Below are positions 22,722 through 63,652 of a DNA stretch of 64,000 bases, in pieces. Under the pieces are notes generated by a model, which saw only the letters and a program-made list of their open reading frames with translations, searched no databases and was not told the origin of the DNA. The position numbers were made by a program, and so were the translations under genes. How positions within the stretch are numbered: position 1 is the stretch's first letter; every line of letters starts with the position of its first letter. Source of the stretch: Planctomycetota bacterium (GTDB taxonomy: Bacteria > Planctomycetota > UBA8108 > SXIK01); assembly GCA_965223845.1 (NCBI GenBank), contig CBDCXR010000004.1, positions 2,368,001-2,432,000 of the forward strand, given 5' to 3'.

Positions 22722-24539
22722 TCAGCGAGCGGACTCGAGGTTCGCCTTGAGTCGCGCGATCTTCGCTTCGAGCTCCTTCTTTCGAAGCGAGAACTTCGCC
22801 AGATCGGTCTCGGCCTTCTCACGGCGACTCTTGAGCTGGGATTCGAGATCGTTCTTCGCCCAGCGGAGCTCCTCGAGCACGTCCGCGAACTCGAGCTCGG
22901 CCTTCCCGAGCTCGGATCGCCGCTCGGCGTCTCGGCGGCGCGAGGCGATCGCCCCCGCGGAGGCAGCCGCCGTACCTTCGATCTTCGCGCGGGCTTCGTC
23001 CACGTCGCACTGCGCGAGATCGCGGTCTGCGGCGATCGTTCGGATCTGCGCGTCGATGCGGTATCGATCGCCTTCGAAGAGCTCCCGGAGATACCCGTCT
23101 TCATCCTCGAGCTCGGCGAGTCGACTCTCGACGTACCGTCGATTGCCCTGCGCGATACGTACGTCCCGGGAGTGAACGAGGACCTCGATTTCCTTCGCGA
23201 GCGCCGTCCACTGAGGAGCGTCGGGAGCAACGCCGCGCTCGTCGAGCCGCGCCATCGCCGCTCGTCGCTCCGCCATTTTCGGCTCGAACAGGAAGCCGTC
23301 GCGCGCGAGCACTGTCGCCTCCTCGCGAAGGGGAGGAGGAACGCTCTCTTCGCGCTTGAGCCACTCGAGCTTGAACTCTTCCTGAAGCGCGTAGATCCGA
23401 AGATAGGTCCACTCGATCTCCTCGACGATCACTCGCCCGCGAGCCAGGAGACGAAGCGTCTCGCGCGCACGAGTTTCCGCGCCACTAACGTCTGCGGCGG
23501 CGGGCTCCGCCTTCGCGAGGAGCGTTTCGATCTTCGCGGCGATCGCGCGGAGCTCCGACTTCTTTTCGTCGATCGAAGTCGCGAGCGGGAGAAGTGCATC
23601 GTAGAGACCGAGTCGACTCTCTAGCTTTCTCAGGACCGCCACCGATCGGAGATAATCGATCCACTCTCGCTCCGACCGGATCCGGCGGAGGACGAGCGTC
23701 GCGGGAGTGCGCCGCGAGGCGAGCTCGGCGAGGCTCTCGACGACATCGGTGTTCACGATGGGAGGAAGCATCCACCGCCGGAGGCGTGACGAGGTCGTTG
23801 CGTGCCAGAGGAGCGAATGCGTCGCGCTTCGCCGAAGAGTGCCGCCGAGAGTGATCTCGCAGACCTCGGGAATCGCACTGCCGAAGCTTTCCTCTCGCGA
23901 CGGCACGTCCCCACGGTCCGGGTCGAGCGAGTCCCCGCCCGGCTCAACCGTCTCGTCGGCCGCCGAGTCTCGATCCTCCGCTGGAGCTCCGTCGCGGGCT
24001 TCCGCGCTCCCGTCGCCGTCGCCCTCTTCCGCGGGGGGAGCCGGTTCGGGGCGCGCACGGCGAGCGCCATACGAAAAGCCTCGGACGAACGCGGGAAAGC
24101 CGAAGTCGCCGTCGTTCAGCAAGCCTTCGGCCGGGTACTCCCGGGCGACACCTCCGTCTTCCCACCGGACAATCGCGAGGAGACGATCGCCTTGCGTCTT
24201 TTCGAAGTCCTCCGGGCCCGTGATGTTCCACGCGCTCGCGCCGCGACAGCCGATCGCCTCGAGTGCGCGCGCGATCTCGGGTCCGGTCGCGTCGAACTCG
24301 AGCACGGTCTCGTGCGTCGGACCGCTCCGGTGACAGGCGAAGACCTCGAGGATGCGCGATGGGTTGACGAAGCGGCTCGCGATGTGCACTTCCCCCCGTT
24401 CGGGGACGGCGACGACACTTCCACTCGGCGTCGTGGGCGATTCCTCGGCGAGAACGTCTCGACCCAGCCCACAGAGGAGCAACAACGAGACGGTGACGAC
24501 CACGACTCCCGCCGAAGCGGGGTTCAGGGACCCAGACAT
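22722..24539 (-). CDS. secreted YdjY-like domain protein with C-terminal coiled coil
   Basis: Signal peptide; LEVFAC...HETVL...I..AL.AIG resembles YdjY; long heptad-rich C-terminus. Confidence 0.65.
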   Translation of the reverse strand: MSGSLNPASAGVVVVTVSLLLLCGLGRDVLAEESPTTPSGSVVAVPERGEVHIASRFVNPSRILEVFACHRSGPTHETVLEFDATGPEIARALEAIGCRGASAWNITGPEDFEKTQGDRLLAIVRWEDGGVAREYPAEGLLNDGDFGFPAFVRGFSYGARRARPEPAPPAEEGDGDGSAEARDGAPAEDRDSAADETVEPGGDSLDPDRGDVPSREESFGSAIPEVCEITLGGTLRRSATHSLLWHATTSSRLRRWMLPPIVNTDVVESLAELASRRTPATLVLRRIRSEREWIDYLRSVAVLRKLESRLGLYDALLPLATSIDEKKSELRAIAAKIETLLAKAEPAAADVSGAETRARETLRLLARGRVIVEEIEWTYLRIYALQEEFKLEWLKREESVPPPLREEATVLARDGFLFEPKMAERRAAMARLDERGVAPDAPQWTALAKEIEVLVHSRDVRIAQGNRRYVESRLAELEDEDGYLRELFEGDRYRIDAQIRTIAADRDLAQCDVDEARAKIEGTAAASAGAIASRRRDAERRSELGKAELEFADVLEELRWAKNDLESQLKSRREKAETDLAKFSLRKKELEAKIARLKANLESAR

Positions 24540-24676
24540 TCTCACGCGACGCCTCCTCTGCGGGGGGTGAAGAAAGTCGACGATCGATCCTTCGGAAAAC
24601 GAGATTTACGCTCGACGGCCGCGGTATTGTACCCCGGAGAGCTCGGGGGACCGGAACCGGAGCCCGGAAGCCGCGA

Positions 24677-25927
24677 TCAGATGCCGGAGAAATCGAGCGT
24701 CGCAAAGAGATCGTCGAGGGTCTCTGCACGCCGGATCTCCTCGACCGCACCGTTCTCGCGAACGAGCAGCTCCGCCGAGCGCAGCTTTCCGTTGTAGTTG
24801 AACCCCATGGCGTGACCGTGGGCGCCGGTGTCGTGAATGACGACGAGGTCGCCGATGTCGATCTCCGGAAGCGCACGATCGATTGCGAACTTGTCGTTGT
24901 TTTCGCACAGCGACCCCGTGACGTCATAGACGTGGTCGGCGGGGGCGGTCTCCTTGCCGACGACCGTGAGGTGGTGGTAGGCCCCGTACATCCCAGGTCG
25001 CATGAGATTCGCCATCGACGCGTCGAGCCCGACGAAGTTCTTGTAGGTCCCCTTCTTGTGGCGGACGCGGGACACGAGGAAGCCGTGTGGCCCGGTGATG
25101 AGACGGCCACTTTCGGTGTACACGCGGAGCGGATCGAGACCCGCGGGAACGATGATCTCCTCGTAGAGGTCCCGAACGGAGCGCCCCACCGCCTCGAGGT
25201 CGACGGGAGACTCCTCCGGCCGGTACGGAACGCCGAAGCCACCGCCGAGGTTCACGAACTCGACCCGGAGATCCAGGCGATCTTTCAAATCCCGAGCGAG
25301 CTCGAAGAGCATCCGCGCGGTCGTCGAAAACGCCTCGAGCTCGAGCGCGTTCGAGATCACCATGGTGTGGAGCCCGAACCGCGTCGCCCCCGCCTCGCGC
25401 GCGGCCGCGTACGCGTCGAAGAACTGCGCGCGCGTCACCCCGAACTTCGCCTCCTTCGGGTCGCCGATGATGCGGTTCCCCTCACGCTCCGGCCCGGGGT
25501 TGAACCGAAACGAGATCATCTCGGGCATGCCCGCGTGCTCGATGAGAAACGGCAGATGGCTCACATCGTCTAGGTTGACGATCGCCCCGATCTCGCGCGC
25601 CTTGACGAACTCTTCCGCGGGCGTGTTGTTGGACGAGAACATCACGTCCTCGCCGCGGATGCCGACGCGATCGGCGAGCACGAGCTCGGCGAGCGAGCTG
25701 CAATCCGCCCCGAAGCCCTCGTCGGCGAGAAGCTTCAAAATGAACGGATTCGGCGTCGCCTTGACCGCGAAGAACTCCTTGAATCCTTCGCACCAAGCGA
25801 ACGCCTCGTTGAGGCGCCGCGCGGTGCGGCGAATGCCCGTCTCGTCGTAGATGTGGAGGGGCGTCGGGTACTCGGCGGTGATCCGCTCGAGCAGCTCTCG
25901 ACTGAACGGAAGAGTCTTGTCGTTCAT
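24677..25927 (-). CDS. lysA: diaminopimelate decarboxylase
   Basis: YPTPLHIYDE, FAVKA (PLP Lys), KFG, NLGGG, ESGR, GSLCENND, GAHGHAMGFNYNG. Confidence 0.95.
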   Translation of the reverse strand: MNDKTLPFSRELLERITAEYPTPLHIYDETGIRRTARRLNEAFAWCEGFKEFFAVKATPNPFILKLLADEGFGADCSSLAELVLADRVGIRGEDVMFSSNNTPAEEFVKAREIGAIVNLDDVSHLPFLIEHAGMPEMISFRFNPGPEREGNRIIGDPKEAKFGVTRAQFFDAYAAAREAGATRFGLHTMVISNALELEAFSTTARMLFELARDLKDRLDLRVEFVNLGGGFGVPYRPEESPVDLEAVGRSVRDLYEEIIVPAGLDPLRVYTESGRLITGPHGFLVSRVRHKKGTYKNFVGLDASMANLMRPGMYGAYHHLTVVGKETAPADHVYDVTGSLCENNDKFAIDRALPEIDIGDLVVIHDTGAHGHAMGFNYNGKLRSAELLVRENGAVEEIRRAETLDDLFATLDFSGI

Positions 25928-26018
25928 GGATTCCTGGCGCGAAGTCAACCGGCGGCGCGCGGAACGCCGACCGCCGGAGACGGTCGGCGAGATCGGAGCG
26001 CCGCGAAGAGAATCGGGG

Positions 26019-26027
26019 AGCATACCA
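26019..26027 (-). promoter_or_regulatory. extended -10 element upstream of lysA
   Basis: TGGTATGCT on the minus strand about 90 nt before the start codon. Confidence 0.45.
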
Positions 26028-26495
26028 CACGGGGCGCGCGGAGTCCCGGGAACCGGATTCCGGGCAAGGAGCCCCGGCGGTCGCCCCACTCGGCGTGAGA
26101 TTCGCGCGAGGGCGCCGGGCGGCGACGGCGGATCGTGACCGCGACCTCGACGGCCACTCGGGCCGTCGAATCCCGCAGTCATCGCGGTGCCGAACACCGG
26201 CTCTTCGAGAAGACGTCGAGTTCGTTCGTTCGACGTTAGCCGGCCGTCGTACCCCGATTTGGGCCGCCGCCTCACGCCCCGGTCTCTCTCCGTGCGTTCG
26301 CCACGTCCGAAAGTGACCTGGACGCTCGTCCCCCAACGCGTAAGATGGACTCGGTGATGTTCTATCCGGCGTCATCGCCCGCGCGTCGCCACGAGGCGAA
26401 CCGACGACGCCCTCTTCGGCTAGTGTCGATAGCTTCCTCGATTCGATAGTCTTCCGAAACACGTCGGCGTGTTCGTGGGAGATCGTATGCGCCCC

Positions 26496-28412
26496 ATGAG
26501 GGTACTCTTCGTAGTTCTCTTGGCGATTGCGCCGACCGCGATGACTCGCGCGGCGTCCTCGTTTTCGCTAGGCGACGGGACGGCGGCGGTCGGCGCGAGC
26601 GCGACGATCGAGCTGAGCCTGTCCTCGGACGAACCCGTTCAGGGTCTGACCGCCGCCATCGAATGGAACGGTGCCGAGCTCGAGGCCGTCGCGCTGACTC
26701 CGGCCGATGTTCTCGCGGGCGCCGATACGGTCGTCACCCGGCTCGAGGGCGACTACGCCGTTCTGGGTGTGATCGTCGATGACGACGGCGTGGGCGATCC
26801 GGCGCTTCCGATCGGCGATCAGGTTCTCGCTGCGATCGAGGTTCGCTGCCGCGGCGCGGTCGAAACCACGGAGCTGCGCTTCGCTGACGGTAAGTACGCC
26901 GTAGCCGAAGGTGGCCCGCTCCTCGACAACCTCGTCGTCGTCGAAGGTCAAACGATCGACCGAGAGACCGGCCTCGGGCTGTCGGCAGGTTCTGTCACCT
27001 GCGGCGAAGGAGTGACGCGTCTCTCGTTCGACGATCGCGGTCGAGAATCGAAGGCCGGCGTTTTGCTGTCGAACACCGGACCGGTCGAAGGCTACACCGT
27101 CGCCGTCTGCCACGCTCCGTCCGATCTGAGTCTACGTTCCATCGAAGTCGGTGCGGCGGCCATCGCGGTCGGCGTCGAGTTCTCGGCGGCGTCGGTCTTC
27201 GATGGCGGCGGGACGCTGGCGGTGATTTTCGATATCGATGCGCCGTTTCAGGGTCAAGCGCTCGCCGTCGGGGATCGCCACGAGATCGCCGTGTTCGAGT
27301 ACGAGTGCCTCTCTCCCGGCGCTCCGACGAGACTCGAGTTTTGTGATGCAATTCTGGGCGAACCTGCGCTCGCGAACACGGTGGTCATCGCCGGACTCTC
27401 CGTGGCTCCAGTTCGGAGCGGCATCACGTACGAATGCGCGCCTGCCGACCCGTGCGGACCGGAGATTTGCGGCAACGGAGTCGACGACGATTGCGACGGA
27501 TCGATCGACGAGGAAGACTGCGCGTCCGTCGCGTTTTCCTGCGGCCCGCGGAAGGCCGCGGACATCGGCCAGCCGATTCTCGGCACGGTCGGAAGCGACG
27601 TCGAGCTCTGCTTCTTCCTCGAGACGAGGGAGGATCACGCGGTCGGTGAGCTGCCGCAGTTCGATCACGTCCAGGGCTTCTCGATGGGGGTCGCTCACCC
27701 CTGCTCCCTCACGGCCGGCAAGGACTTCGACATCTCGGGAACGATCCTCGAAGCGATCGGCGCGGAATTCGTATCTCTCGAAACGGACGCCGTCGCGACG
27801 GACGGCGACGGTTGCGAGCTCGTCATCGGAGTACTCGTCGATGCGCTCCCGCCGTTCGATGGAGCGACGATCCCGCCCCTCGACGGCCCACAGCGAATGG
27901 GTTGCCTCACGATGACGATCGCCGACGACGAGGCGCTCTGCGGCACTCCGCTCGCGGTAGAGTTCGTCGACGGCGTGAATATCGCGGGTCAGGCACCGGT
28001 GAAGAATCTCGTCTCGGTCGAGAACACGGCACGCGCGCCCGCGCTGATCAGCTGTGAAATCGAACCTGTGAGTCGCGGCCGTTTCTACCGGGGAGACTGC
28101 GATTTCAGCGGCGGGGAAATCGGGCTCGCCCTCAACATCAACGACGCCGGGGCGATGATTAGCTTCTTCTTCCATGATCCCGCCGTGCGCTTCGAGCCCC
28201 CGTGCCTCGACGCGTGCGACTGCAATGACGATGGTCGCCTCGATCTCGCCGATACGACCTGCGTCCTTCGGTTTCTGTTTCGGAGTGGTCCGATCCCGCC
28301 GCCACCCGGCCCGGGAGTCGAACGGGTCGACGGAGGATTCGCCGACACGCGCGCCGGAATCGATCCGACCTTCGATCTCCTCGACTGCGTAGAAGGCAGT
28401 CGCTGCGATTGA
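26496..28412 (+). CDS. secreted scaffoldin-like protein: three cohesin-like domains, a Cys/Asp metal-binding motif and a dockerin
   Basis: Signal peptide; three related beta-sandwich repeats (VQGLTAAIEW / VEGYTVAVCH / VQGFSMGVAH ... F.D...N.V.V); PEICGNGVDDDCDGSIDE; FYRGDCD...DACDCNDDGRLDLAD. Confidence 0.8.
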   Translation: MRVLFVVLLAIAPTAMTRAASSFSLGDGTAAVGASATIELSLSSDEPVQGLTAAIEWNGAELEAVALTPADVLAGADTVVTRLEGDYAVLGVIVDDDGVGDPALPIGDQVLAAIEVRCRGAVETTELRFADGKYAVAEGGPLLDNLVVVEGQTIDRETGLGLSAGSVTCGEGVTRLSFDDRGRESKAGVLLSNTGPVEGYTVAVCHAPSDLSLRSIEVGAAAIAVGVEFSAASVFDGGGTLAVIFDIDAPFQGQALAVGDRHEIAVFEYECLSPGAPTRLEFCDAILGEPALANTVVIAGLSVAPVRSGITYECAPADPCGPEICGNGVDDDCDGSIDEEDCASVAFSCGPRKAADIGQPILGTVGSDVELCFFLETREDHAVGELPQFDHVQGFSMGVAHPCSLTAGKDFDISGTILEAIGAEFVSLETDAVATDGDGCELVIGVLVDALPPFDGATIPPLDGPQRMGCLTMTIADDEALCGTPLAVEFVDGVNIAGQAPVKNLVSVENTARAPALISCEIEPVSRGRFYRGDCDFSGGEIGLALNINDAGAMISFFFHDPAVRFEPPCLDACDCNDDGRLDLADTTCVLRFLFRSGPIPPPPGPGVERVDGGFADTRAGIDPTFDLLDCVEGSRCD

Positions 28413-31671: not shown

Positions 31672-34600
31672 ATGCGAAACCGCCTTCTCGCCATCCTCGT
31701 CGTCGGCATCGCTCCGTTCACTCTCGCCGACGACACTCGTCCGAAGAACGTCCTCTTCATCGCGATCGATGACCTCCGGCCGGAGCTCGGCTGCTACGGC
31801 GTCCCGTACGCGCAGACGCCGCATCTTGACCGGTTCGCCGAGAGCGGTGTCGTCTTTCGCAATCATTTCGTCCAGGTGCCGACGTGCGGTGCTTCGCGCT
31901 ACGCGCTTCTCACCGGACGAAGTCCAGCGCGCTCCGGCGTCACGCGCGGAAACCACTCGTTCTACGGCGGTCCGTCCGCGCTCGTTCGCGGGCCGACCGC
32001 TGGAGCGCAGTCGCTGCCCGAGCTCTTTCGGCGGAGCGGCTACCGTACGGTCGCGATCGGGAAGATCTCGCACACCGCCGATGGCAAGGTCTACGCGTAC
32101 AACGGCGGAGGCGACGGACGCCCCGAGATGCCGAACGCGTGGGACGCGCTACCGACGCCGTACGGCGCGTGGAAGCGTGGATGGGGCGTGTTCTTCGCGT
32201 ACGAGGGAGGCCGGCACCGCGAAGACGGGGGCGGCAACAAAGATCTCCTCGAGTTTACCGCAAAGGCGGACGACGAGCTCCCGGACGGGCAGATCGCCGA
32301 ACGGGCCGTCGAGCAACTCCGCGACCTCTCGTCGCGGGCGGAACCGTTTTTTCTCGCGGTCGGATTCTTCAAGCCGCACCTCCCGTTCGTCGCGACTGCC
32401 GGCGACTGGGAAGCGATGGCCGGCGTCGACGTGCCGCCGCCGGAGTCGCCCGAGCGCACGCTCTCGGAGTACTGGCACGGAAGCGGCGAGTTCTACAAGT
32501 ACGACACGGCGATGAAGAAGACGAAGCCGCTCGCTACCGAAGACCAGATCACCGCGCGGCGGGCGTACCTCGCGTGCGTGCGCTACGTCGATCGCCAAGT
32601 GGGGAAGGTCCTCAGCTCACTCGAGGAGCTCGGTCTCGCGGAGTCGACGATCGTCGTTGTCTGGGGCGATCACGGTTGGCACCTCGGCGATTCGGCGATC
32701 TGGGGAAAACACTCTCCGCTCGAGCGAGCGCTCCGAAGCACGCTCATCATCCGCGCGCCGGGGGTATCCCGCGCGGGTCTCGTCGCCGATGGCGTCGTCG
32801 AGACGATCGATCTCTACCCGACGCTCGTCGATCTCTGCGCGCCTCGATTCACCCGAACGCGATTTCCGCTCGACGGGCGAACTCTCCGGCCGATGCTCAC
32901 CGGAGAACGCGAAGCCGTCCGAACCGCGGCCGTCAGTTACTGGGGCGCGGCGGTCAGCGTTCGAACGGCGACTCACCGACTCGTCGCGACGCGGAAGGGC
33001 GACGATCTGTCAAAGGTCGAGCTCTACGCGGTGAGCGACGGACCGGATCCCGAGGCGTCGAAGAATCTCGCGGCGAGTCGTCTGGACCTCGTCGGACGAC
33101 TTCTCAAGGAAGTTCCCGAGCGTGCCGCGACTCCACACCGTTCGGCCGGTTTCGCGCAGGAAAGCGCATTCCTACCTCGGGGGCTCGAGGAGAAGGACGT
33201 TCTCACGATCGCCGCAACGCCTCGCGGCGTTTATGCGGGGACGAAGGGCGGCGCGTTCCGGCTCGACGGCGACCGATGGCAGCCGACGGACGAGCTTCCG
33301 CCCGCTCGCGTGCCGGCGATCACCGCAACACCCGATGGACTACTCGCCGTCGTCGGGGACGCCCTCTGCGAACTCTCGGCGGCGGGAGAACGACGCCGCA
33401 TCGCGCCGGCTCCCCCGGGGAGTGTGAGCGATCTCGAGACTCGAAGCGGCGTGACGATGATCGCAACGGATCGCGGACTCTTTCGCATTCGCGGAGGAGC
33501 CGCGGAGCCGGATGCCGCCCTCGCGCGGATCGCGGGGAATCCTTTCGACATTCGCTCCGTAGCGATCGGTCCGAGCGGCGCACCCGCGATCGCCGCCGCC
33601 TCCGGCCTCTACGAGAAGCGAGACGATTCCTGGCGCCGCGTTCTCCCGCGAGCGGGGAGCCGCTCCTGGGCGCCCCACGATGTGCGCGCGGTCGCCTACG
33701 ACGTGGTCGACCGCCTTTGGTTCGCGAGTCCACAAGGCGTGGGAGTTCGAGCCGAATCCGGTTGGACGCTCTACGACGGCCGCGATGGCCTACCCTACGC
33801 CGACTTCACCTCGATCGCGACCGGGCTCGACGGTGCGGTGTGGTTCGGCACGCGGCGTGGAGCGATTCGATGGAGCGGCGGCGATTGGGCGTATCGCCAG
33901 AGTCGACGCTGGCTTCCGGGCGACGACGTACGGGATGTCGCGATCGATTCGAACGGAACGATCTGGTTCGCGACGGCAAAGGGCGCGGGTCGCATCTCCT
34001 ACTCGCCGACAACGCTCGCAGAGAAGGCTGACGCCTACGAGGAAGCGATCGAACGCTACCATCGGCGCACTCCCTACGGGTACGTCGACTCCGCGACGCT
34101 TTCGCGTCCAGGCGATCGAAGCGAGTGGCAAAACCACGACAGCGACAACGACGGCCTGTGGACGAGCATGTACGGCGCGAGCCAGTGCTTCGCCTACGCT
34201 GCGACACGCGACCCTGCAGCAAAGGAACGCGCGCGACGCGCTTTCGAGGCGCTCCGCTTCCTCCGCGAGGTCACGCGAGGCGGCGAGCACTCGCCGCCCG
34301 AGGGTTTTGTCGCGCGAACGATCCGCCCGGCGACGGGCCCCGACCCGAATGCCGGTCGCGCGGAGTCCGACAAGAAATTCCGGGCCGAACGCGATCGGAA
34401 GTGGAAGCTCATCGAGCCGCGCTGGCCGAAGAGCGCCGACGGAAAGTGGTACTGGAAATCGGACACGAGCTCCGACGAGCTCGACGGACACTATTTCTTT
34501 TATCCGCTCTACTACGACCGCGTCTGCGAGACGGAAGCCGAGCGCGCTCCCGTTCGCGAAGTCGTCCGGGCGATCACCGATCACCTCATCGCGCACGACT

Positions 34601-35370
34601 TTCGGCTCGTCGACCACGACGGGCTCCCCACTCGCTGGGCGCAGTTCGGTCCACGGGAGCTGAACGACGATCCGACATGGTGGGAAGAGCGCGGCCTCAA
34701 CTCGCTCAGCGTCCTCTCTTACCTCGCGGTCGCGCAACACATGACGGGCGATTCCAAGTACGGTGAAGCTGCGCGCGAACTGCGCGAGAAGCACAGTTAC
34801 ACCCTGAACGTTCTCTACCCGAAAAATCAAAACGGCCCCGCCTCCGGCAATCAGTCGGACGACGAGATGGCCTTCATGGGTTACTACAACCTCATCCGCT
34901 ACGAACCTGATCCGGAACTCCGCTCGGTCTGGACGTACTCGTTCCACGAATACTGGACGCGTGAACGCCCCGAGCGAAATCCTCTGTTCAACTTTCTCTA
35001 CGCGTCGGTCGCCCGCGGCACGAAGTGGGAGGACGCGTTCAACACGATCGATCTCACCGCGAGGGGCGATTGGCTCGCCGACTCACGCGATTCACTCGAA
35101 CGCTTCCCGCTCGATCTCGCCGACTGGCCGATGGCGAACAGCCATCGACTCGACATCGCGTTGCTTCCACAGTTCCTTCGCCCGGGAGTGAAGGCGAAAC
35201 GCGGACACCGACCCGACGGCAAGGTGCTTCCGGTCGACGAACGCTTCTTCACTCACTGGAACCACGACCCGTGGGTCCTGGACACGGGTGGCTCGGGGCG
35301 ACGACTGGCGGACGGGGCGACGTTCTTGCTTCCGTACTACCTCGGGCGGTACTACGGGTTCGTGGAGTAG
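31672..35370 (+). CDS. secreted formylglycine sulfatase (iduronate-2-sulfatase-like) fused to a beta-propeller and an uncharacterised helical domain
   Basis: IDDLRP, CGASR (CxxxR), GKISH, KPHLPF, GDHGWHLG, WGKH; then LWFA/VWFG/IWFA propeller repeats; then SDNDGLWT, DTSSDE. Confidence 0.88.
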   Translation: MRNRLLAILVVGIAPFTLADDTRPKNVLFIAIDDLRPELGCYGVPYAQTPHLDRFAESGVVFRNHFVQVPTCGASRYALLTGRSPARSGVTRGNHSFYGGPSALVRGPTAGAQSLPELFRRSGYRTVAIGKISHTADGKVYAYNGGGDGRPEMPNAWDALPTPYGAWKRGWGVFFAYEGGRHREDGGGNKDLLEFTAKADDELPDGQIAERAVEQLRDLSSRAEPFFLAVGFFKPHLPFVATAGDWEAMAGVDVPPPESPERTLSEYWHGSGEFYKYDTAMKKTKPLATEDQITARRAYLACVRYVDRQVGKVLSSLEELGLAESTIVVVWGDHGWHLGDSAIWGKHSPLERALRSTLIIRAPGVSRAGLVADGVVETIDLYPTLVDLCAPRFTRTRFPLDGRTLRPMLTGEREAVRTAAVSYWGAAVSVRTATHRLVATRKGDDLSKVELYAVSDGPDPEASKNLAASRLDLVGRLLKEVPERAATPHRSAGFAQESAFLPRGLEEKDVLTIAATPRGVYAGTKGGAFRLDGDRWQPTDELPPARVPAITATPDGLLAVVGDALCELSAAGERRRIAPAPPGSVSDLETRSGVTMIATDRGLFRIRGGAAEPDAALARIAGNPFDIRSVAIGPSGAPAIAAASGLYEKRDDSWRRVLPRAGSRSWAPHDVRAVAYDVVDRLWFASPQGVGVRAESGWTLYDGRDGLPYADFTSIATGLDGAVWFGTRRGAIRWSGGDWAYRQSRRWLPGDDVRDVAIDSNGTIWFATAKGAGRISYSPTTLAEKADAYEEAIERYHRRTPYGYVDSATLSRPGDRSEWQNHDSDNDGLWTSMYGASQCFAYAATRDPAAKERARRAFEALRFLREVTRGGEHSPPEGFVARTIRPATGPDPNAGRAESDKKFRAERDRKWKLIEPRWPKSADGKWYWKSDTSSDELDGHYFFYPLYYDRVCETEAERAPVREVVRAITDHLIAHDFRLVDHDGLPTRWAQFGPRELNDDPTWWEERGLNSLSVLSYLAVAQHMTGDSKYGEAARELREKHSYTLNVLYPKNQNGPASGNQSDDEMAFMGYYNLIRYEPDPELRSVWTYSFHEYWTRERPERNPLFNFLYASVARGTKWEDAFNTIDLTARGDWLADSRDSLERFPLDLADWPMANSHRLDIALLPQFLRPGVKAKRGHRPDGKVLPVDERFFTHWNHDPWVLDTGGSGRRLADGATFLLPYYLGRYYGFVE

Positions 35371-43616: not shown

Positions 43617-44555
43617 ATGAACCATCGGCGTGCCGGCTGGATCGCCGCCTTCGTTGGGATCACTACGCTTTGCTGCCCCGCGTTAGCTGGGGAGTCGAGC
43701 GCATCCGTCGCCTACCGCCTGGGCTCCGTCGAATCGACGTCGAGCGCGTTCGTCCGCGTCCCGTTCGACGTCACGGCAAAGCTCGACGTCTCCGTACTCA
43801 CGTGGAGCGTCGAGTTCGATCCGAGCGCACTCGCGTTCGAGTCGGTCGAGCTGTCCGATCAGCTCCGCGAGCGCCTGTCGAATCCCGAGAGCGAGGATGG
43901 CTCTCTCCACGAGGATTCGGAGCTCGAGGTGTTCGTCGACTCCGTCGAAGGCTGGGTTCAGATTTCGCTCGTCTCCGACTATCGCAGTCGCGGGCGCTTC
44001 GCAATCCCGCCGGGACTCCTTCGCTCGGGCATCCATCTTGTTTTTCGCGTCGCGGACAACGCGGCGGAGGGCACGTATCCTCTCCGCTTCTCTCGCGTCG
44101 GTGAAGCCGAGTACGCCGGCAACTTCCTTCTCGACGGCTCGGAGCCGGTTTACAACCGAACCCGCGCGTTCGCGCTCGACGAAGAGTTCAGCCCGGAGTC
44201 AAAGCTGGACGGATCGACGGAGGCAGAGCTCGCCGATGGCGAGATCGTCGTCGCGCACATCATCGGAGACGTCGGAGTGTTTCTGCGCGGCGACGCGAAC
44301 ATCGACGGCTTCGTGGATGTCTCCGACCCGATTCGCGTGCTGGGTTTCCTCTTTGTCTCCGCCGAGCAGTTTGTCTGCCCGCGCACTGCCGACGTCAACT
44401 CCGACCGAGCGCTCGACATCAGCGATCCGATCGCGATCCTGACTCAGCTCTTTGTCGTCGACACGTTCGCGCCGGAGTGGATTCCGGTCGGGTACACGGG
44501 CGCTCACTGCGCAATCGACACGATTCTCGACGAGCCCAGCGACCCAGCCGATTGA
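43617..44555 (+). CDS. secreted cohesin-like plus dockerin protein
   Basis: Signal peptide; VRVPF...SVEFDPSAL.F...FRVADNAAEGTYPLRF; FLRGDANIDGFVDVSDP...TADVNSDRALDISDP. Confidence 0.8.
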   Translation: MNHRRAGWIAAFVGITTLCCPALAGESSASVAYRLGSVESTSSAFVRVPFDVTAKLDVSVLTWSVEFDPSALAFESVELSDQLRERLSNPESEDGSLHEDSELEVFVDSVEGWVQISLVSDYRSRGRFAIPPGLLRSGIHLVFRVADNAAEGTYPLRFSRVGEAEYAGNFLLDGSEPVYNRTRAFALDEEFSPESKLDGSTEAELADGEIVVAHIIGDVGVFLRGDANIDGFVDVSDPIRVLGFLFVSAEQFVCPRTADVNSDRALDISDPIAILTQLFVVDTFAPEWIPVGYTGAHCAIDTILDEPSDPAD

Positions 44556-44614: not shown

Positions 44615-47600
44615 ATGACGCGCTCTCGACGCCGCCCTCAGCATCCGCGCTACGAGATCTCGGAGCGTCTCGCTGCCGGCGGTACGAGCGACGTCTTCCT
44701 CGCACGCGATCGAATCGACGGCTCTAGCGTCGCGCTCAAGATTTGCCGCGACGCGGCGGCCCCCACCCGCTTCACGCGCGAGTTCCGCGTCCTTCGCGAT
44801 CTGCGCCACCCGGCGATCGTCCAAGCGCTCGACTTCGGCGTCATGCCCGATAGCGGCTCGGCGTACGTCGCGCTCGAGCACGTCGAGGGGAGGAGCCTCG
44901 ACGAAGAGATCAAATCCTACTCGCGCCCACTTTCCGCGGACGATCGAGCGCACCTCGTTCGCGTCCTCGCCGAGCTCGCAGACGCTCTCGTCTACATCCA
45001 TCGGCGCCGGATCCTCCACCTCGACCTCAAGCCGTCGAACATGATCCTCGCGACGGCCGGGGTCCGTCTGATCGATTTCGGCTTCGTCGAGGACCGCGAG
45101 CGTCAACCTCGTCGAATCGTTCACGGCACTCCGCGCTACGCGGCGCCCGAGATCCTCGCGGGCCGTCCCGCCGACGAGAGGAGCGACCTCTTCTCGGTGG
45201 GCGTCACGATGTACCGAGCGCTGACAGGAAGATATCCCTACACGCGAACGCAGCTCGAAAGTTCAGCCAGCGGGGATGTCCCGGCTGCGCCGCGTCGTCT
45301 TCGCGCCGAGACGGACGCATTGGACGCGATCGTGCTCCGACTCGTCGCGTGGGCTCCTGAGGATCGCTTCCCGCGCGCTGAAGCCCTCGCGGATGCGCTC
45401 GCGGAAGCGTTCCCCGATGCGCTCGCGGCGACCCGTGCGGCCGGCAGCGCGGAGTTCATCGGCCGGCGCGCCGAGCTCGATCGCTTTCTCGAGTGGCTCG
45501 ATTCGTTCACCACGGGCGACGCTCCGGCTCCTCTAGTCATCCGCGGCGAAACCGGGATCGGGAAGACACGGTTCATCGATCGGTGCACCACGGAGCTCCT
45601 CAGCACCGGAGTGAACGTTTTCAGCGTGCCGGCGAAGTCGCGCCGAGAGTTTGACACACTGCGCCGCCTGGTCCAGCAGGTGTTGGCGCTCTCTCCGGCG
45701 ACACCGGACGCGCTCGATGCGCGATTCGGTTTTCTCCTGTCCGTTCTCGGTCTCGCGGAAGACCCGACCCGCCTCGACGAGCTGCGTGACTTCGACGTAG
45801 AGCAGATTCGATCGCGAATCTTTCGTGAGTTCTTCGACCTCCTCGACGAGTCTACCGCAGAGCGCCTCACGATCGTCAGCGATAACGCCGATCTCGCGGA
45901 TCCTCACTGGCGCGCGCTCGTCGAGCGAGTTCTCCACGGCGGAGTTCCCGCACCGCTCGCGGGACGAGTCGGGTGGATCGTTTCGACGCGAGACGCGGGC
46001 GAGATCGCCGGCGGCGATGCTCTCGATCTCTCGCCCCTCGATCCCGAGGAAACACTCGCTCTTTCCACCGCACTCCTCCCTCGGGCCGACGACGACGTCC
46101 GGCGACGCCACGCGGAGACGGCGCGCGGAAACCCCGGCTTTCTCGCTCAGCTCGTCCGGCGCTCAACTCCTCTACCGAGTGGCAGCCTCGCCGGCGGCGC
46201 CGACCTCGCTCGTGTGCTTCGGCTCGAGTTTCTCAACGTCGAGCGAGACGAGCAGGATGTCGTGATTTGTCTCAGTCTCCTCGGCCGACCGTCGACGACG
46301 GGCGAGCTCGCCCGCATTACAGGGTCTGCCGAAGACGACGTCGATCATCGCATCGACGCTCTCGTCGCGGTCGGCCTCGTCGAGAGACGCGGCACGAGCT
46401 GTGATCTCGGTCACGACGTCCTCGACGCCGAGACGATCTCCACCTTTGCTCCGGATCGGGTTCCCGATCTGCACGCGCGCATCGGCGAAGCCCTCGTCGA
46501 ATCACGCGCCGATTCCCGCGAGGCCGCGCGCCACCTGCTTCGCTCTCCGGAGGTCGAACGCGGTCTCGCCGTCGGACGCGAGGCACTCGACGCCCTCAAG
46601 CAATCGGGAAGAGTCCACAGCGCGCTCGACCTCTGCGCCGAGATGCTCGAGCACGGGTCGACGATGCCCGGAGACCAGCGACTCACTCTCCTCGAAGAGG
46701 AAGGCGACCTCGCGCAGAAGGCCGGACGGCTCGACTCGGCGCTCGAATCGTACGACAAGCTTCTCGACGAGACGGATCTCCAAGGACTCGCGCGCGTCCG
46801 GGCCCAACGAAAGAAGGGCGGCGCCCTCCAGCGCTCCGGACAGAGTGACGCCGCACACTCGGCGCTCCTCGCGGCTCTTCACAGTCTCGATCCCGCCGAC
46901 GCGCCGGCGAGTCCGGCCACTCTCGATGAGGAGCTTCATCTCGCGAACGAACTCGCGGCGTTTCACCTCTATCGCGGCGAATTCGCCCAGAGCACGACGT
47001 TTGCCAACCGTGGCCTCGAGGTCCTCGCGAGCGATGCGGCTCGCGCGATCGACGAGCCGAAGCGCGCTCTGCACGCGCTCAACCTCCATTCGATCGCGGG
47101 CCACATCTACCTCCGCCAATTCGAGTACGAGCGTTCGACCGAACAGTTCGAAAAAGCCCTCGAACACTCGGGGGATCGCGCGGCGCTCCCGAGCTCGGCG
47201 CTCATCCTCAACAACCTCGGCGTCGCTTATCAGCAGTGGAATCGGATCCGTCGAGCCCTCGATGTCTACGAGCGGGCACGAAAGGTGGCGCAGCTCCTCG
47301 GCGACGATACCGCCGTGTTCAGCATCCAGTGCAACGTCGCCGGAGTCCGCGCGCGCCTCGGCCAGCTCAGTCTCGCCGACGAGCTGCTGGAAGTCGCGCG
47401 CGCCATGCCGATATGCACGAGCTCACGCCGAGCCCGGCTGTTCTTCCTGTATACGCGAGCGCTCACGGCGAGACTGGCGGGAATCGACGCGGGCGAGCAG
47501 TGGCGAGAAGTGGTCGCGCTCGCCGACGAACTTCCCGATCCGCTCTTCGCGGGATACGCACGCGTTCACTCGCTCGAGAACGAGATCTTTGCCGGGCGAT

Positions 47601-49762
47601 TCGCGGACGCGCGACGCATCGCGGAGTCGGTGAGCGGAGCGGGCGACGCGCGGCGGCAGCGTGCCGTCGACCTCCGACTCGCGTATCTCGATGCCGTTTG
47701 TGGACATCGACGGAGCGCGGAGACGATCCTCGCGCGCTGGTCGAAGAGCATGTCGCTTCGTGACGATGCCGGTTCGGACTCGGCGTTCCTCTGGGACACC
47801 GTGATCTTCGCCGGGGCGCTGATCGAGCTCGGGGAGCTCGACGGCGCCAAGGAGAAGCTCGAATTCGCCGCGGGACTCTTCGATGAGCTCGGAGAAATCC
47901 CGGGCCGGCTCGAGTGCGCGCTGCAGCTCGCGGATCTCTATCTGCGTTCGAGAGACGGAGACGCGGCGGAGCGCTCGCTCGGCGATGCACGACAGGCGCT
48001 CGCCCTTCACGACACGAGTTTCGGGTCGCGGGACGCGAGACGACGACTCCTCTTCCTCGAGATACGAAGCGCCGTACTCGCAGGCGCGCGGTCGCGGTCG
48101 CGACTTCCCGCGCCACTCCGGCGCGCAGTTCTCGAAGATTCTCTCACGGGGGTCGGCGAGCTCGAGTGGCTCGTCCTCCTCACGGCGACAGAAGGGGGCG
48201 TGAGTGGCCTCGATCCCCGTCTGAAGGCCGCGCGCGACGCATTCGTCGCCGGACTTGGTCCGCACGACCGTGCGAGCTACCTCCAGCGGGACCAGCGACG
48301 ACGACTGGGGCTCGCTCCGGCTGGCGACGCGTTGACGACGCGAGAGACCGAACGCTCGGCGCAGCAGCTCGGAAGCCTCTATCGACTGCGCTCGGCCAAG
48401 GAATTCAACGCGGCCTTCGATCTCGCGCTCGAGGCCATCGGAGCCGAGAGCGTCGCAATCGTCGTCGAAACGAGCGGAGGAGGGCGGAAACTCCTCCACG
48501 CGCGGTCAGCCGGTCGCTCGTCCCTGACCGGCGAGCTCGATCTCAACTCGCTCACGGCCGACGGAAGTCGGTGCGGTGACTGGCTCTCGGTCGAGCTGCC
48601 TCGGCCGGACGAGCGCCGCCCGAGTTTCCTCTGCGCGGAGGTTCCCCGCGACGGGAATGTCGACGACGACGAGACGATCGAGTTTCTTCACCTCGTCGCG
48701 CACTTTTTGGTGCGGCTCCTACCGCGCGTTTCTCCGACCGATCGCGGCGAAAACGGGGACTCGACGCGGCTGTTGCGGCCCGGCACTCCGCCCGATCCGA
48801 ACGCGGAGATCGTCGCCGAGTCTCCAGTGATGCGCGAGATCGTCACCCTCATCGAGCGAACGCGGGACTCGAACCTTCCCGTTCTCATCAGCGGCGAGTC
48901 CGGAGTCGGCAAAGACTTCATCGCGCGGCGCGTGCACGCGCGGAGTCAGCGGGCGAACGAAGCGTTCGTCGCCCAAGACTGCTCGGCCATCCCCGAGGGA
49001 CTCTTCGAAGCCGAGCTGTTCGGCGCAGTCGCGGGCGCGTTCACCGGCGCGACGGAAGCGCGGGAAGGCTGCCTCGTCGCGGCGGATGGCGGGACGTTTT
49101 ATCTCGACGGCATCGATTCACTTCCGCTCGAGGCGCAGGCGAAACTCCTCCGCGTTCTCGAGACGGGCGAAATCCGGCCGCTCGGCAGCGCCGAGTCGCT
49201 CTCGATCGACATCCGTGTCGTCAGCTCGGCTCGCCGCAATCTCAAGGATCTGAGCGCCCGGGGAGAGTTCCGGCGCGACCTCTACTTTCGCGTCGCCGGA
49301 ATCTGTCTCGAGCTTCCCCCGCTGCGCGAGCGGACCGGAGACATCCCCGGTCTCGTCCAGGCGTTCCAACGAGAGATCGCCGAGTCGAAAACCGCGTTCA
49401 CGGCGCCGAGCATCGAAGCCCTCAAGGCATACTCTTGGCCGGGAAACGTCCGTGAGCTCGAGTCCTTGGTTCGCCGGTTGGCGCTCACGGTCGACGGATC
49501 CGTCGAGCCGGAACACGTCCGAGACGCGCTCGGCATCGCGCGCGATGTCCCGCAGTTTCCGACGTGGATCTTCGAGGACCGCGACTACCGCGAAGTCATG
49601 GATGCGGTGAAGCGAGAGTATTTGCTCCATCTCTTCGATCGCTACGACGGGGATCTCGCCCGTGTCGCGGAAGCGATGGGGACGACCAAGCGAAACGTCT
49701 ACCTCCGGTTTCAGCAGGTCGGCCTGAAGCCGACGGAGCTCCGCAACCGGCGCTCGAGCTGA
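44615..49762 (+). CDS. Ser/Thr kinase - AAA ATPase - TPR - sigma54-dependent activator - Fis HTH fusion
   Basis: VALK, HLDLKPSN, DFG, APE; FIGR, GETGIGKT, GNP; LNNLG TPRs; GESGVGK, GAFTGA, FRRDLYFR, WPGNVRELE; C-terminal HTH. Confidence 0.92.
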   Translation: MTRSRRRPQHPRYEISERLAAGGTSDVFLARDRIDGSSVALKICRDAAAPTRFTREFRVLRDLRHPAIVQALDFGVMPDSGSAYVALEHVEGRSLDEEIKSYSRPLSADDRAHLVRVLAELADALVYIHRRRILHLDLKPSNMILATAGVRLIDFGFVEDRERQPRRIVHGTPRYAAPEILAGRPADERSDLFSVGVTMYRALTGRYPYTRTQLESSASGDVPAAPRRLRAETDALDAIVLRLVAWAPEDRFPRAEALADALAEAFPDALAATRAAGSAEFIGRRAELDRFLEWLDSFTTGDAPAPLVIRGETGIGKTRFIDRCTTELLSTGVNVFSVPAKSRREFDTLRRLVQQVLALSPATPDALDARFGFLLSVLGLAEDPTRLDELRDFDVEQIRSRIFREFFDLLDESTAERLTIVSDNADLADPHWRALVERVLHGGVPAPLAGRVGWIVSTRDAGEIAGGDALDLSPLDPEETLALSTALLPRADDDVRRRHAETARGNPGFLAQLVRRSTPLPSGSLAGGADLARVLRLEFLNVERDEQDVVICLSLLGRPSTTGELARITGSAEDDVDHRIDALVAVGLVERRGTSCDLGHDVLDAETISTFAPDRVPDLHARIGEALVESRADSREAARHLLRSPEVERGLAVGREALDALKQSGRVHSALDLCAEMLEHGSTMPGDQRLTLLEEEGDLAQKAGRLDSALESYDKLLDETDLQGLARVRAQRKKGGALQRSGQSDAAHSALLAALHSLDPADAPASPATLDEELHLANELAAFHLYRGEFAQSTTFANRGLEVLASDAARAIDEPKRALHALNLHSIAGHIYLRQFEYERSTEQFEKALEHSGDRAALPSSALILNNLGVAYQQWNRIRRALDVYERARKVAQLLGDDTAVFSIQCNVAGVRARLGQLSLADELLEVARAMPICTSSRRARLFFLYTRALTARLAGIDAGEQWREVVALADELPDPLFAGYARVHSLENEIFAGRFADARRIAESVSGAGDARRQRAVDLRLAYLDAVCGHRRSAETILARWSKSMSLRDDAGSDSAFLWDTVIFAGALIELGELDGAKEKLEFAAGLFDELGEIPGRLECALQLADLYLRSRDGDAAERSLGDARQALALHDTSFGSRDARRRLLFLEIRSAVLAGARSRSRLPAPLRRAVLEDSLTGVGELEWLVLLTATEGGVSGLDPRLKAARDAFVAGLGPHDRASYLQRDQRRRLGLAPAGDALTTRETERSAQQLGSLYRLRSAKEFNAAFDLALEAIGAESVAIVVETSGGGRKLLHARSAGRSSLTGELDLNSLTADGSRCGDWLSVELPRPDERRPSFLCAEVPRDGNVDDDETIEFLHLVAHFLVRLLPRVSPTDRGENGDSTRLLRPGTPPDPNAEIVAESPVMREIVTLIERTRDSNLPVLISGESGVGKDFIARRVHARSQRANEAFVAQDCSAIPEGLFEAELFGAVAGAFTGATEAREGCLVAADGGTFYLDGIDSLPLEAQAKLLRVLETGEIRPLGSAESLSIDIRVVSSARRNLKDLSARGEFRRDLYFRVAGICLELPPLRERTGDIPGLVQAFQREIAESKTAFTAPSIEALKAYSWPGNVRELESLVRRLALTVDGSVEPEHVRDALGIARDVPQFPTWIFEDRDYREVMDAVKREYLLHLFDRYDGDLARVAEAMGTTKRNVYLRFQQVGLKPTELRNRRSS

Positions 49763-49774
49763 TCGGGCGACACG

Positions 49775-49803
49775 TTGACGTCCTCGAATTTAGTGTCCAT
49801 TCT
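49775..49803 (+). promoter_or_regulatory. putative sigma70 promoter
   Basis: TTGACG-17 nt-CATTCT upstream of the DUF1080 gene. Confidence 0.5.
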
Positions 49804-49878
49804 GAGAGGCGGACTCTTCCGCGAGTGCGCGAACGCGCTACTCACCCGTTCGACGACCACGCTTTCGGAGCGACTCTC

Positions 49879-63421: not shown

Positions 63422-63652
63422 TCCTCGCTCCCTCGCGTCTCGCCGGACAGCCCGTCGCACGCAGAGTTTAGTGTTCTCGATCGAGCCCGCGGCGTCCCTC
63501 ACTCCGCTGGACGCCGCCGGACGGCTCGCCCTACGTTCATCAACGCCCCTCACTCGGAGATGTTGCAACGACTTCGCCCGCAGACGAGTTTTTTCGCCGC
63601 CGCCGAAGTCCCCCCGCTCGCGAGCCTCCCCCCGGAGCCCTCGCGGAGTTCC

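Follow-up and report, generated by a model that had tools for sequence, protein, structure and literature searches.

A predicted cohesin-dockerin connector protein without a catalytic domain and its uncharacterized family in Planctomycetota

A 64-kb stretch of DNA from a Planctomycetota bacterium (hereafter the window) carries, at positions 26487-28412 of the forward strand, a gene for a predicted exported protein in which three related repeats (R1, R2 and R3) precede a C-terminal dockerin-like module. Profile comparisons and coevolution make a cohesin-like jelly-roll fold highly probable for R1 and R2, and the dockerin assignment is well supported. We see an even chance that the gene product serves at the cell surface as a structural connector of the cohesin-dockerin type and functions without enzymes. 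Cohesin-dockerin pairing is the best-known "plug and socket" among bacterial proteins and, to our knowledge, has been studied almost only in the cellulosomes of Gram-positive anaerobes; many phyla are known to have such modules outside cellulosomes, and a 2009 survey by Peer et al. is said to be the standard account of these.

Residues are numbered here according to P0001, the 638-amino-acid translation from the ATG at 26496 that was taken as the start in a first-pass annotation of this DNA. The modules follow one another in the order signal peptide, R1, R2, Cys/Asp motif, R3, C-terminal dockerin-like module and conserved Cys tail:

26487-28412, forward strand: whole gene, likely start ATG 26487; the 641-residue P0002 is identical; syntenic ortholog with 48% identity in locus L001
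26496-26555, forward strand: predicted signal peptide, P0001 residues 1-20; hydrophobic core at residues 3-12 (Kyte-Doolittle 3.49), then TRA/AS; heuristic call
26556-27011, forward strand: R1, cohesin-like type A, residues 21-172; predicted pair Cys118-Cys169
27012-27434, forward strand: R2, cohesin-like type A, residues 173-313; predicted pair Cys205-Cys283, and Cys271 paired with Cys314 of the knot
27435-27530, forward strand: Cys/Asp-rich knot, residues 314-345; predicted pair Cys325-Cys342, and Cys320-Cys333 by elimination
27531-28061, forward strand: R3, divergent cohesin-like type B, residues 346-522; predicted pairs Cys349-Cys520, Cys372-Cys470 and Cys403-Cys440; adjoins the dockerin
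28062-28313, forward strand: dockerin-like module, residues 523-606; two Ca-loop/helix repeats; predicted pairs Cys535-Cys574 and Cys576-Cys589
28314-28409, forward strand: tail at the C-terminus, residues 607-638, conserved and containing Cys631 and Cys637

The first-pass annotation had described this protein, from the letters alone, as a secreted one with three internally similar repeats, a Cys/Asp motif between repeats 2 and 3, a C-terminal dockerin, no catalytic domain and an unusually high Cys content, and this outline holds throughout. The open reading frame (ORF) is present as described and is an intact gene encoding 638-641 amino acids. At the N-terminus, an Arg precedes the hydrophobic core (residues 3-12, mean Kyte-Doolittle value 3.49), and TRA/AS follows it; the same signal-peptide-like pattern is seen in 63 of the 67 relatives that start with Met, compared to 28 of 67 interior control windows, according to a Kyte-Doolittle/pattern heuristic that is not a trained predictor. 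A hydropathy scan of P0001 reveals no transmembrane-like stretch after the N-terminus. The protein contains 24 Cys among its 638 residues and is very acidic (102 Asp and Glu versus 33 Lys and Arg). Pfam and NCBIfam searches with P0001 identify no catalytic domain, all matches being below threshold (MopE, E 0.0033; EF-hand_7, E 0.031; acid_disulf_rpt, E 0.0081), and Pfam detects no carbohydrate-binding module (CBM) or SLH domain in P0001 or its 72-sequence family.

Cohesin-like repeats and the dockerin-like module

The 72-sequence family alignment (A1) was cut into domain slices, and the slices were compared by hhalign. R1 (21-172) and R2 (173-313) match each other with the probability of 99.9% (E 9e-32), R1 and R3 (346-522) with 98.4% (E 1e-14), and R2 and R3 with 98.6% (E 9e-16), against 0.1% for the control comparison of R1 with the dockerin region. 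No DNA-level repeat is present in the gene, which rules out a recent tandem duplication and indicates that the triplication is ancient. In a tree of 240 of the 397 modules, 75 of the 76 R3-type sequences group in a single clade (SH-aLRT 99) that is separate from the R1 and R2 types; by these comparisons, R3 is a divergent sister type of the R1/R2 cohesin-like modules.

A search of the PDB with the A1 profile identifies the scaffoldin cohesin of C. cellulolyticum, 2vn5_A (E 2.5e-4 over 112 columns), with further matches to the cohesins 1g1k_A (E 3.4e-4) and 4dh2_A (E 0.034). A second cohesin- and dockerin-encoding gene of the window, P0245 (43617-44555), provides a bridge from R1 and R2 to canonical cohesins. 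Compared with the target, its family profile (A7) gives clearer matches to cohesins and dockerins of known structure (6kg8, E 7.7e-5; 6kgc, 1.1e-4; 3kcp, 7.6e-4; 3l8q, 1.1e-3; and a dozen more cohesins; dockerin 5m2o, 4.5e-5), and Pfam Cohesin is detected in 2 of 17 P0245 homologs. By hhalign, R1 matches the P0245 cohesin with the probability of 92.2% (E 5.8e-7), R2 with 74.9% (E 2.6e-5) and R1 and R2 together with 92.9%. The link needed the family alignment of this second gene: its single sequence, P0231, yields no match to the R1 and R2 profiles. A search of short proteins with the R1 profile, aimed at bridging to canonical cohesins, retrieved 14 family fragments only.

Coevolution of residues provides further clues to the fold. 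Mean-field direct coupling analysis (DCA) of 622 R1/R2-type modules (154 columns; effective number of sequences, Neff, 516) yields 99 couplings stronger than any in a column-shuffled control (highest value 1.07), with the top coupling between Cys205 and Cys283. Different strand segments are connected by 59 of these couplings, 36 of which fall into seven neighbor pairs, 1-2, 2-7, 7-4, 1-9, 8-3, 3-6 and 6-5; the register is parallel for 1-9 and antiparallel for the other six. As outlined in the available portions of PMC5429695, the cohesin is a nine-strand jelly roll with the sheets 9-1-2-7-4 and 8-3-6-5, in which strands 1 and 9 are parallel. The pattern in R1 and R2 agrees with this published strand pairing and speaks for a cohesin-like fold. 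For R3, DCA recovers three strand ladders only, at low power. In addition, Pfam Cohesin matches 9 of the 72 relatives, eight at the R1 position and one at R2, and four of these exceed the gathering score (P0053, 24.8; P0070, 26.1; P0081, 28.7; and P0085, 31.9 bits). In a search by protein-language-model features with the R3 region of the homolog P0036 (364-546), 28 of the 30 named matches belong to the Cohesin set, and 13-18% of the members of the neighboring clusters carry Pfam Cohesin (score 0.93), which is to be taken as a lead only.

The C-terminal module (residues 523-606) is a well-supported dockerin. The dockerin sub-alignment from 45 genes (A5) was searched against the PDB; the five best matches among the 21 listed are CelS 2mte (E 2.5e-6), 1daq (2.6e-6), 4fl4 (1.3e-4), 2y3n (3.2e-4) and ScaH 8ajy (4.8e-4), and these five and most of the others are dockerins or dockerin-bearing cellulosomal enzymes. 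Conservation of the two Ca loops was counted in 191 non-identical dockerin modules from related loci. In loop 1, position 1 is Asp or Asn in 191 modules, position 3 is Asn in 184, position 5 is Asp or Ser, position 9 is Asp or Asn, and position 12 is Asp in all 191. In loop 2, Asp575 is conserved in 188 modules, Asn577 in 183, Asp579 in 184 and Asp586 in 191 of 191, and position 583 is Asp in 122 and Asn in 63. Loop 2 of P0001 is canonical (D575, N577, D579, D583 and D586), and loop 1 (D534, D536, S538, N547 and D550) retains positions 1, 3, 9 and 12. Two tandem loop-helix segments with Asp or Asn at positions 1, 3, 5, 9 and 12, the mark of a dockerin, are found here at the level of sequence. 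Pfam Dockerin_1 matches 19 of the 72 relatives, two of them above the cut-off (P0028, 25.2 bits, and P0081, 28.4 bits), and residues 571-630 of P0001 give the EF-hand_7 match mentioned above (E 0.031).

Several results weigh against these assignments and, with them, against the connector function. The Pfam Cohesin model (PF00963; gathering score 24.1 bits) does not match P0001 even at E<=10, the isolated R1, R2 and R3 of P0001 have no match to it at E<=0.1, and among the modules from the genome loci it matches 1 of 45 R1, 0 of 46 R2 and 0 of 46 R3. The locus-based sub-profiles reach the ScaC cohesin 5lxv with E values of 0.14 (R1), 0.023 (R2) and 0.021 (R1+R2) and are outranked there by 9qpe_A, a type VI secretion Hcp chain (R1, E 0.0047; R1+R2, E 0.0072). 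The Hcp match is probably due to chance; its alignment spans only part of the module. The R3 sub-profile has no cohesin match in the PDB, and the hhalign comparison of R3 with the P0245 cohesin is not significant (2.1%). As for coevolution, the strand limits that define the 59 couplings were derived from the coupling data themselves, and the phylogenetic signal survives the shuffling of columns. A similar jelly-roll topology exists in some CBMs; a Pfam search found no similarity of the repeat modules or the family to any CBM family. On the dockerin side, Pfam Dockerin_1 (PF00404; gathering score 22.9 bits) has no match in P0001 even at E 10, and in loop 1 of P0001 position 5 is Ser and five residues are inserted that most of the 191 modules do not have, so that this loop may not bind Ca2+. 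The claim of three cohesin-like domains is supported for R1 and R2, through transitive profiles and DCA topology; Pfam Cohesin does not match the protein, and R3, the divergent sister type, has no direct match to solved cohesins. We infer the cohesin fold from profiles and coevolution taken together.

Predicted disulfides, the R3-dockerin-tail unit and the Cys/Asp knot

The 24 cysteines of P0001 can be arranged in 12 predicted pairs, ten of which co-occur across the 72 sequences with correlations of 0.81-1.00. For Cys576 and Cys589, both residues are present in 54 sequences and neither in 18, with no sequence having a single one; the corresponding counts of both and neither are 71 and 1 for Cys570-Cys631, 69 and 3 for Cys535-Cys574, 51 and 21 for Cys205-Cys283, and 65 and 7 for Cys403-Cys440. 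Correlations of 0.81-0.97 are obtained for Cys118-Cys169, Cys325-Cys342, Cys271-Cys314, Cys349-Cys520 and Cys372-Cys470, and Cys482-Cys637 and the P0001-specific Cys320-Cys333 are paired by elimination. Six of the ten pairs are among the top DCA couplings: Cys205-Cys283 holds rank 1 in the analysis of the R1/R2-type modules, and the other five, Cys403-Cys440, Cys372-Cys470, Cys576-Cys589, Cys349-Cys520 and Cys535-Cys574, occupy ranks 4-15 in that of R3 and the dockerin. These pairs look like intramolecular staples, not links between subunits. The disulfide-stabilized assembly that had been proposed for this protein is not borne out, as the 12 co-occurring pairs either stay within a module or connect R3, the dockerin and the tail in a single chain; cross-links between subunits were rejected given the even Cys count and the intramolecular pairs. 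Because the cysteines are paired, an oxidizing, extracytoplasmic location and intramolecular stabilization are the expected setting.

Analysis of the domain order in front of the dockerin, in 207 distinct dockerin-bearing ORFs from 71 related loci, reveals a specific association of this module with R3. The module directly preceding the dockerin is R3-type in 101 ORFs and R1/R2-type in 75, and 31 ORFs have no cohesin-like module in this position. R3 directly precedes the dockerin in all 101 R3-bearing ORFs, and in the 71 loci an R1 or R2 module never follows R3. The tail that ends the protein contains two Cys in 93 of 98 R3-dockerin proteins and three in 71 of 76 R1/R2-dockerin proteins and 25 of 30 dockerin-only proteins; these counts are as expected if in R3 proteins the last tail Cys pairs with Cys482. 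The tail is probably stapled both to the dockerin (Cys570-Cys631) and to R3 (Cys482-Cys637). Weak couplings between R3 and the dockerin (503-544, 512-547, 488-593, 502-594 and 496-571) are detected at ranks 13, 31, 38, 39 and 49 in a DCA that is underpowered, with Neff of 193 for 290 columns. Taken together, this pattern suggests a single rigid unit in which R3, the dockerin and the tail are stapled to one another.

The top coupling of the R3-dockerin analysis connects residues 485 and 523 (about 27948 and 28062 in the window). Column 523 is Cys in 44 of the 72 relatives and Glu in P0001; many relatives probably have an additional disulfide at the R3/dockerin junction that P0001 lacks.

The knot between R2 and R3 contains the motif PEICGNGVDDDCDGSIDE at residues 322-339, where the first-pass annotation had placed it, and an Asp-rich DxDxDG-type stretch, CGNGVDDDCDGSIDEEDC. 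The matches of this region to curated families are below the cut-offs: PF11617 (MopE) scores 18.1 of the required 27 bits (E 0.0033), and NF033662 (NCBIfam, acidic double-disulfide repeat) scores 15.9 of 41 bits (E 0.0081); PF11617 also matches 5 of the 72 relatives, none reaching the cut-off. The family profile matches the C-rich domain of teneurin-4 (7plp, E 7.5e-4), which, as described in the accessible parts of PMC9058538, holds three Ca2+ ions at thrombospondin type 3 (TSP3)-like and LDL-A-like sites between disulfides. The knot resembles the teneurin C-rich, TSP3, MopE and acidic double-disulfide modules in having a short Asp-rich DxDxDG-type stretch between paired cysteines, but differs from them in that the window protein has a single copy, as an optional insert, with scores below the curated cut-offs. 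Across the 72 sequences, Cys325 and Cys342 are both present in 59, single in 1 and both absent in 12. A hidden Markov model (HMM) detects the insert in part only of the family ORF architectures, which identifies it as an optional spacer, not a core part of the protein. The insert probably binds Ca2+.

The family, its gene arrays and the genomic context

The protein belongs to a large, uncharacterized planctomycete family, the members of which are named "hypothetical protein" where they have any name. A word-indexed search identifies 100 proteins at E<=0.001, most of them spanning 93-100% of the query with 37-49% identity. Among 1.84 billion cluster representatives, 4181 match at E<=1e-3, 434 at E<=1e-10 and 120 at E<=1e-30; many of the 4181 matches rest on the dockerin module alone. 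In GTDB species genomes, 316 stretches were confirmed and 71 loci were kept, 60 of which are titled Planctomycetota, the other 11 being metagenome-assembled genomes labeled "bacterium", Proteobacteria, Bacillota or Gemmatimonadales. The relatives thus come almost exclusively from metagenome-assembled genomes of Planctomycetota.

Of the 71 loci, 43 contain at least two cohesin-like genes, which are arranged co-directionally, with as many as eight in one array (L058). The number of cohesin-like modules per protein is between one and five, and a dockerin terminates almost all complete ORFs; internal or multiple dockerins occur in a few relatives, e.g., P0190 and P0112. Distant relatives with about 30% identity (loci L021-L068; e.g., L058:1-13280, L050, L053 and L056) form tandem arrays of at most eight paralogs with one dockerin each, and two type-A modules followed by a dockerin are the commonest architecture in these loci. 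In the closest relatives (L004-L008 and L014), the gene is followed by genes for three dockerin proteins of 517, 328 and 508 amino acids; the 517-residue protein bears the Cys/Asp motif, and no other domain is recognizable in the trio, which is absent beside the window gene. Of 12 neighboring dockerin proteins in related loci, 10 match Pfam Dockerin_1, seven of them above the cut-off; in 10 of the 12, the dockerin is the only Pfam domain, and Pfam finds no catalytic domain in any of the 12. Likewise, none of 28 longer relatives has a catalytic Pfam domain; 13 of these carry some family, namely SdrD_B, CarboxypepD_reg, PKD, FG-GAP, Big_5, TSP3_bac, Dockerin_1 or Cohesin. The domains found in place of enzymes are of adhesin type (SdrD_B, PKD, FG-GAP, Big_5 and TIG/TSP3-type).

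The window encodes four dockerin-bearing ORFs including the target; the other three are the following:

43617-44555, forward strand: second cohesin and dockerin gene, P0245, 312 amino acids, with a signal peptide, one cohesin, a dockerin at about 44274-44477 and a short tail; candidate partner
1-705, forward strand: 3' part of an edge-cut gene with a C-terminal dockerin-like module at about 436-648 (family dockerin HMM, E 2.2e-19); candidate partner
63653-64000, reverse strand: 3' part of an edge-cut gene (dockerin HMM, E 1.7e-19; tail HMM, E 0.0016; Dockerin_1, E 0.001); candidate partner

The ORF at 63653-64000 combines the dockerin-like module with the same conserved Cys tail as the target. 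No dockerin is found on an enzyme among the 23 window ORFs scanned or the three other dockerin ORFs of the window. Directly downstream of P0245, positions 44615-49762 of the forward strand encode a protein of 1715 residues in which a Ser/Thr protein kinase is fused to an AAA_16/TPR region and to an AAA+ domain of the sigma-54 activator type. Adjoining the dockerin ORF at the right edge, a 1078-residue protein with at least five CarboxypepD_reg-like repeats is encoded at 60332-63568 (reverse strand); such repeats are also fused to family members elsewhere (e.g., P0108, P0128 and P0147).

The longest reading frame of the target gene runs from a GTG at 26469 to the stop codon at 28410-28412 of the forward strand (647 amino acids) and is intact. 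The ATG at 26487, which gives 641 amino acids, is the more likely start because GGGAG lies 5 nucleotides upstream of it and the database copy P0002, 100% identical to P0001, has 641 residues. The G+C content of the window is 62-69% throughout, and the codon-position bias of the ORF is similar to that of its neighbors (G+C at third codon positions 0.77). The flanking genes, as identified by Pfam, encode an S41 peptidase, a 607-residue protein of no known family and an Orn/DAP/Arg-type decarboxylase dependent on pyridoxal phosphate (PLP) on the opposite strand, and an M20 peptidase and an AbgT transporter follow downstream on the strand of the gene; these neighbors are housekeeping genes. A gene 48% identical to the target is present in a 9.18-Mb Planctomycetota chromosome (L001), and since the gene order around this ortholog is conserved, the target is a vertically inherited chromosomal gene, not part of an island. 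The PLP decarboxylase (24677-26275, reverse strand) is inverted relative to L001:4414-5670 (forward strand), with the rest of the locus syntenic. The 607-residue protein (22722-24545, reverse strand) is hydrophobic at its N-terminus and charged over its long C-terminal half; it has no Pfam family and is conserved beside the ortholog in L001 with 41% identity.

A gap of 118 bp, in a gene order that is conserved in L001, separates the gene from the M20 peptidase, and a terminator scan found none. An operon with functional coupling to this peptidase is unlikely; its N-terminus, judged by eye, does not look like a signal peptide. No RNA element or tRNA was found near the gene. Further genes of the window encode a 1232-residue sulfatase with a match to Reg_prop repeats (31672-35370, forward strand) and a protein with a 3-keto-disaccharide hydrolase domain (49564-50694), both of which are typical of the gene content of Planctomycetota.

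Proposed function, alternatives and related systems

For an exported, very acidic, non-catalytic protein of this composition, the likeliest role is to connect other proteins structurally, in a cohesin-dockerin network that is not cellulosomal and lies beyond the cytoplasm. In this scheme, the Sec route would carry the protein out of the cytoplasm, its own dockerin would be received by a cohesin that belongs to a different protein, either a paralog or the single-cohesin protein encoded at 43617-44555, and the free cohesin-like modules would take up dockerins of other exported proteins, candidates for which are the products of the three additional dockerin ORFs of the window. The outcome would be Ca2+-dependent, branched, enzyme-free assemblies of the matrix, adhesin or surface-layer type. 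Ca2+ binding, location and cohesin-dockerin binding are likewise inferred. A bolder and doubtful version is an enzyme-free, self-assembling cohesin-dockerin material, in which the paralogs encoded in arrays of as many as eight genes would polymerize into a Ca2+-dependent, disulfide-hardened, branched lattice (a surface layer, holdfast or matrix), with R3, the dockerin and the tail as a new, covalently clasped composite module and such pairing as a general principle of planctomycete surface construction in place of a means of enzyme display; within that version, the clasp perhaps gates docking in trans.

The connector has to be reconciled with several features of the protein and its locus. The R3-dockerin gap has a median of 0 residues, and the modules abut without linkers. 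The weak R3-dockerin couplings allow a dockerin that is occupied in cis and would therefore argue against free docking in trans. The gene is solitary both in the window and in the ortholog locus L001, with no paralog array, and no membrane or wall anchor was identified for P0001.

The layout of the protein is similar to that of the adaptor scaffoldins of cellulosomes, with ScaB of Acetivibrio cellulolyticus and C. clariflavum as an example presented in the accessible text of PMC4959524: both have a signal peptide, several cohesins and a C-terminal dockerin and are non-catalytic. This adaptor arrangement, several cohesins with one dockerin in a secreted, non-catalytic protein, is found here with the cohesins assigned by sequence only, and the Ca2+-loop dockerin of the window protein is homologous to type I dockerins. 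However, unlike the adaptor scaffoldins, the window protein has no dockerin-tagged enzymes nearby (64 kb), no CBM and no Pro/Thr linkers; its R3 seems tied to the dockerin; it combines two divergent cohesin subtypes with many predicted disulfides, is very acidic, is missed by the Pfam Cohesin and Dockerin models, and is encoded by a diderm planctomycete, not a Gram-positive anaerobe. Another parallel is Amy4 of R. bromii, a component of the amylosome; according to the available sections of PMC4611034, its cohesin recognizes the dockerin of the same polypeptide, so that multimerization is possible. Amy4 shares with the window protein the non-cellulosomal setting and the presence of cohesin and dockerin in one polypeptide, and its self-recognition is, by analogy, the mechanism that may apply here; Amy4 differs in being a GH13 enzyme with one cohesin, as compared to three cohesin-like modules and no enzyme part in the window protein.

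In Planctomycetota themselves, the "planctosome" of Nemodlikiaceae has been put forward as a non-cellulosomal complex of cohesin, dockerin and thrombospondin type 3 repeat proteins (the consulted portions of PMC6461901). The model is hypothetical; its components are a giant protein with an LTD anchor, an adaptor of the dockerin-hyalin-cohesin type and peptidases tagged with dockerins (PMC6461901, also cited in PMC8542988); none of these proposed partner types is seen in the 64-kb window. The accessible parts of the literature on cohesins and dockerins in Planctomycetota (including PMC6461901, PMC11557425, PMC5264255, PMC8542988 and bioRxiv 10.1101/2023.11.21.568195) contain no experimental test and no account of the present family, the paralog arrays or the R3-dockerin unit, with the proviso that the supplementary figures of PMC6461901 may list relatives.

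These comparisons bear directly on the function of the protein as an enzyme-recruiting adaptor in the cellulosome or "planctosome" sense, whereby the cohesins would gather dockerin-tagged hydrolases and the dockerin would join an anchoring scaffoldin. We consider this function distinctly unlikely. It agrees with the adaptor layout of several cohesins, one dockerin and no catalytic domain (the available text of PMC4959524), with the hypothetical planctomycete peptidase complex already proposed (in the portions seen of PMC6461901), and with the presence of four dockerin-bearing ORFs in the window; what it lacks is a dockerin-bearing enzyme in any of the 23 + 3 window ORFs, the 12 neighboring dockerin proteins or the 28 longer relatives, along with a CBM, inter-module linkers and an anchoring scaffoldin. 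The same absence of dockerin-tagged enzymes from the window, the 12 neighbors and the 28 longer relatives fits the label "non-cellulosomal" that the protein had been given at first reading; given that the window covers 64 kb of a 7.9-Mb contig, such enzymes may lie elsewhere in the genome. The tight R3-dockerin association admits a different interpretation, namely that R3 permanently holds the dockerin in cis, as a composite, disulfide-stapled Ca2+ module, and that the protein is a self-capped adhesin with a rigid stalk, its R1 and R2 binding a non-protein ligand, glycan or mineral surface in the manner of CBMs, with no network formed. The strict order in 101 of 101 ORFs with the median gap of 0, the tail Cys counts that fit an R3-tail disulfide, the R3-dockerin couplings at ranks 13 to 49 and the fusion of longer relatives to the adhesin-type domains SdrD_B, PKD and FG-GAP are all compatible with it, as is the resemblance of the cohesin fold to CBM jelly rolls. 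Nevertheless, we regard a self-capped adhesin as unlikely: the couplings come from the underpowered analysis (Neff 193, 290 columns), the dockerin evidently also works in the absence of R3, with R1/R2-type modules in front of it in 75 of 207 ORFs and no cohesin-like module in 31, and Pfam detects no sequence similarity to CBM families. Very improbable, finally, is a main role of the dockerin-like module and Cys tail as a sorting or anchoring signal of some planctomycete route for export or attachment, which would leave the repeats as passenger domains of unrelated function. The C-terminal position of the module in the listed ORF architectures and in all four dockerin ORFs of the window, the short conserved Cys tail after it, the very different passengers and the 4181 matches, many through the module alone, would be expected of such a signal. 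The homology of the module to true dockerins with both Ca loops kept, its systematic co-occurrence, within single proteins and within arrays, with modules of the cohesin-like kind and the internal or multiple dockerins in relatives such as P0190 and P0112 are not, and no sorting machinery was identified.

The connector function would give a distinct significance to a Planctomycetota family that joins cohesin-like modules and a dockerin in one chain, with no enzyme in sight and often in paralog arrays. If cohesin-dockerin binding turned out to be absent, the annotation of a protein as "cohesin" or "dockerin" in such phyla would be no reason to expect cellulosome-like complexes. If the binding is real, the family would offer a tractable case of cohesin-dockerin pairing in the service of structure or adhesion, and could be a source of new, orthogonal, disulfide-stabilized binding pairs for protein engineering.

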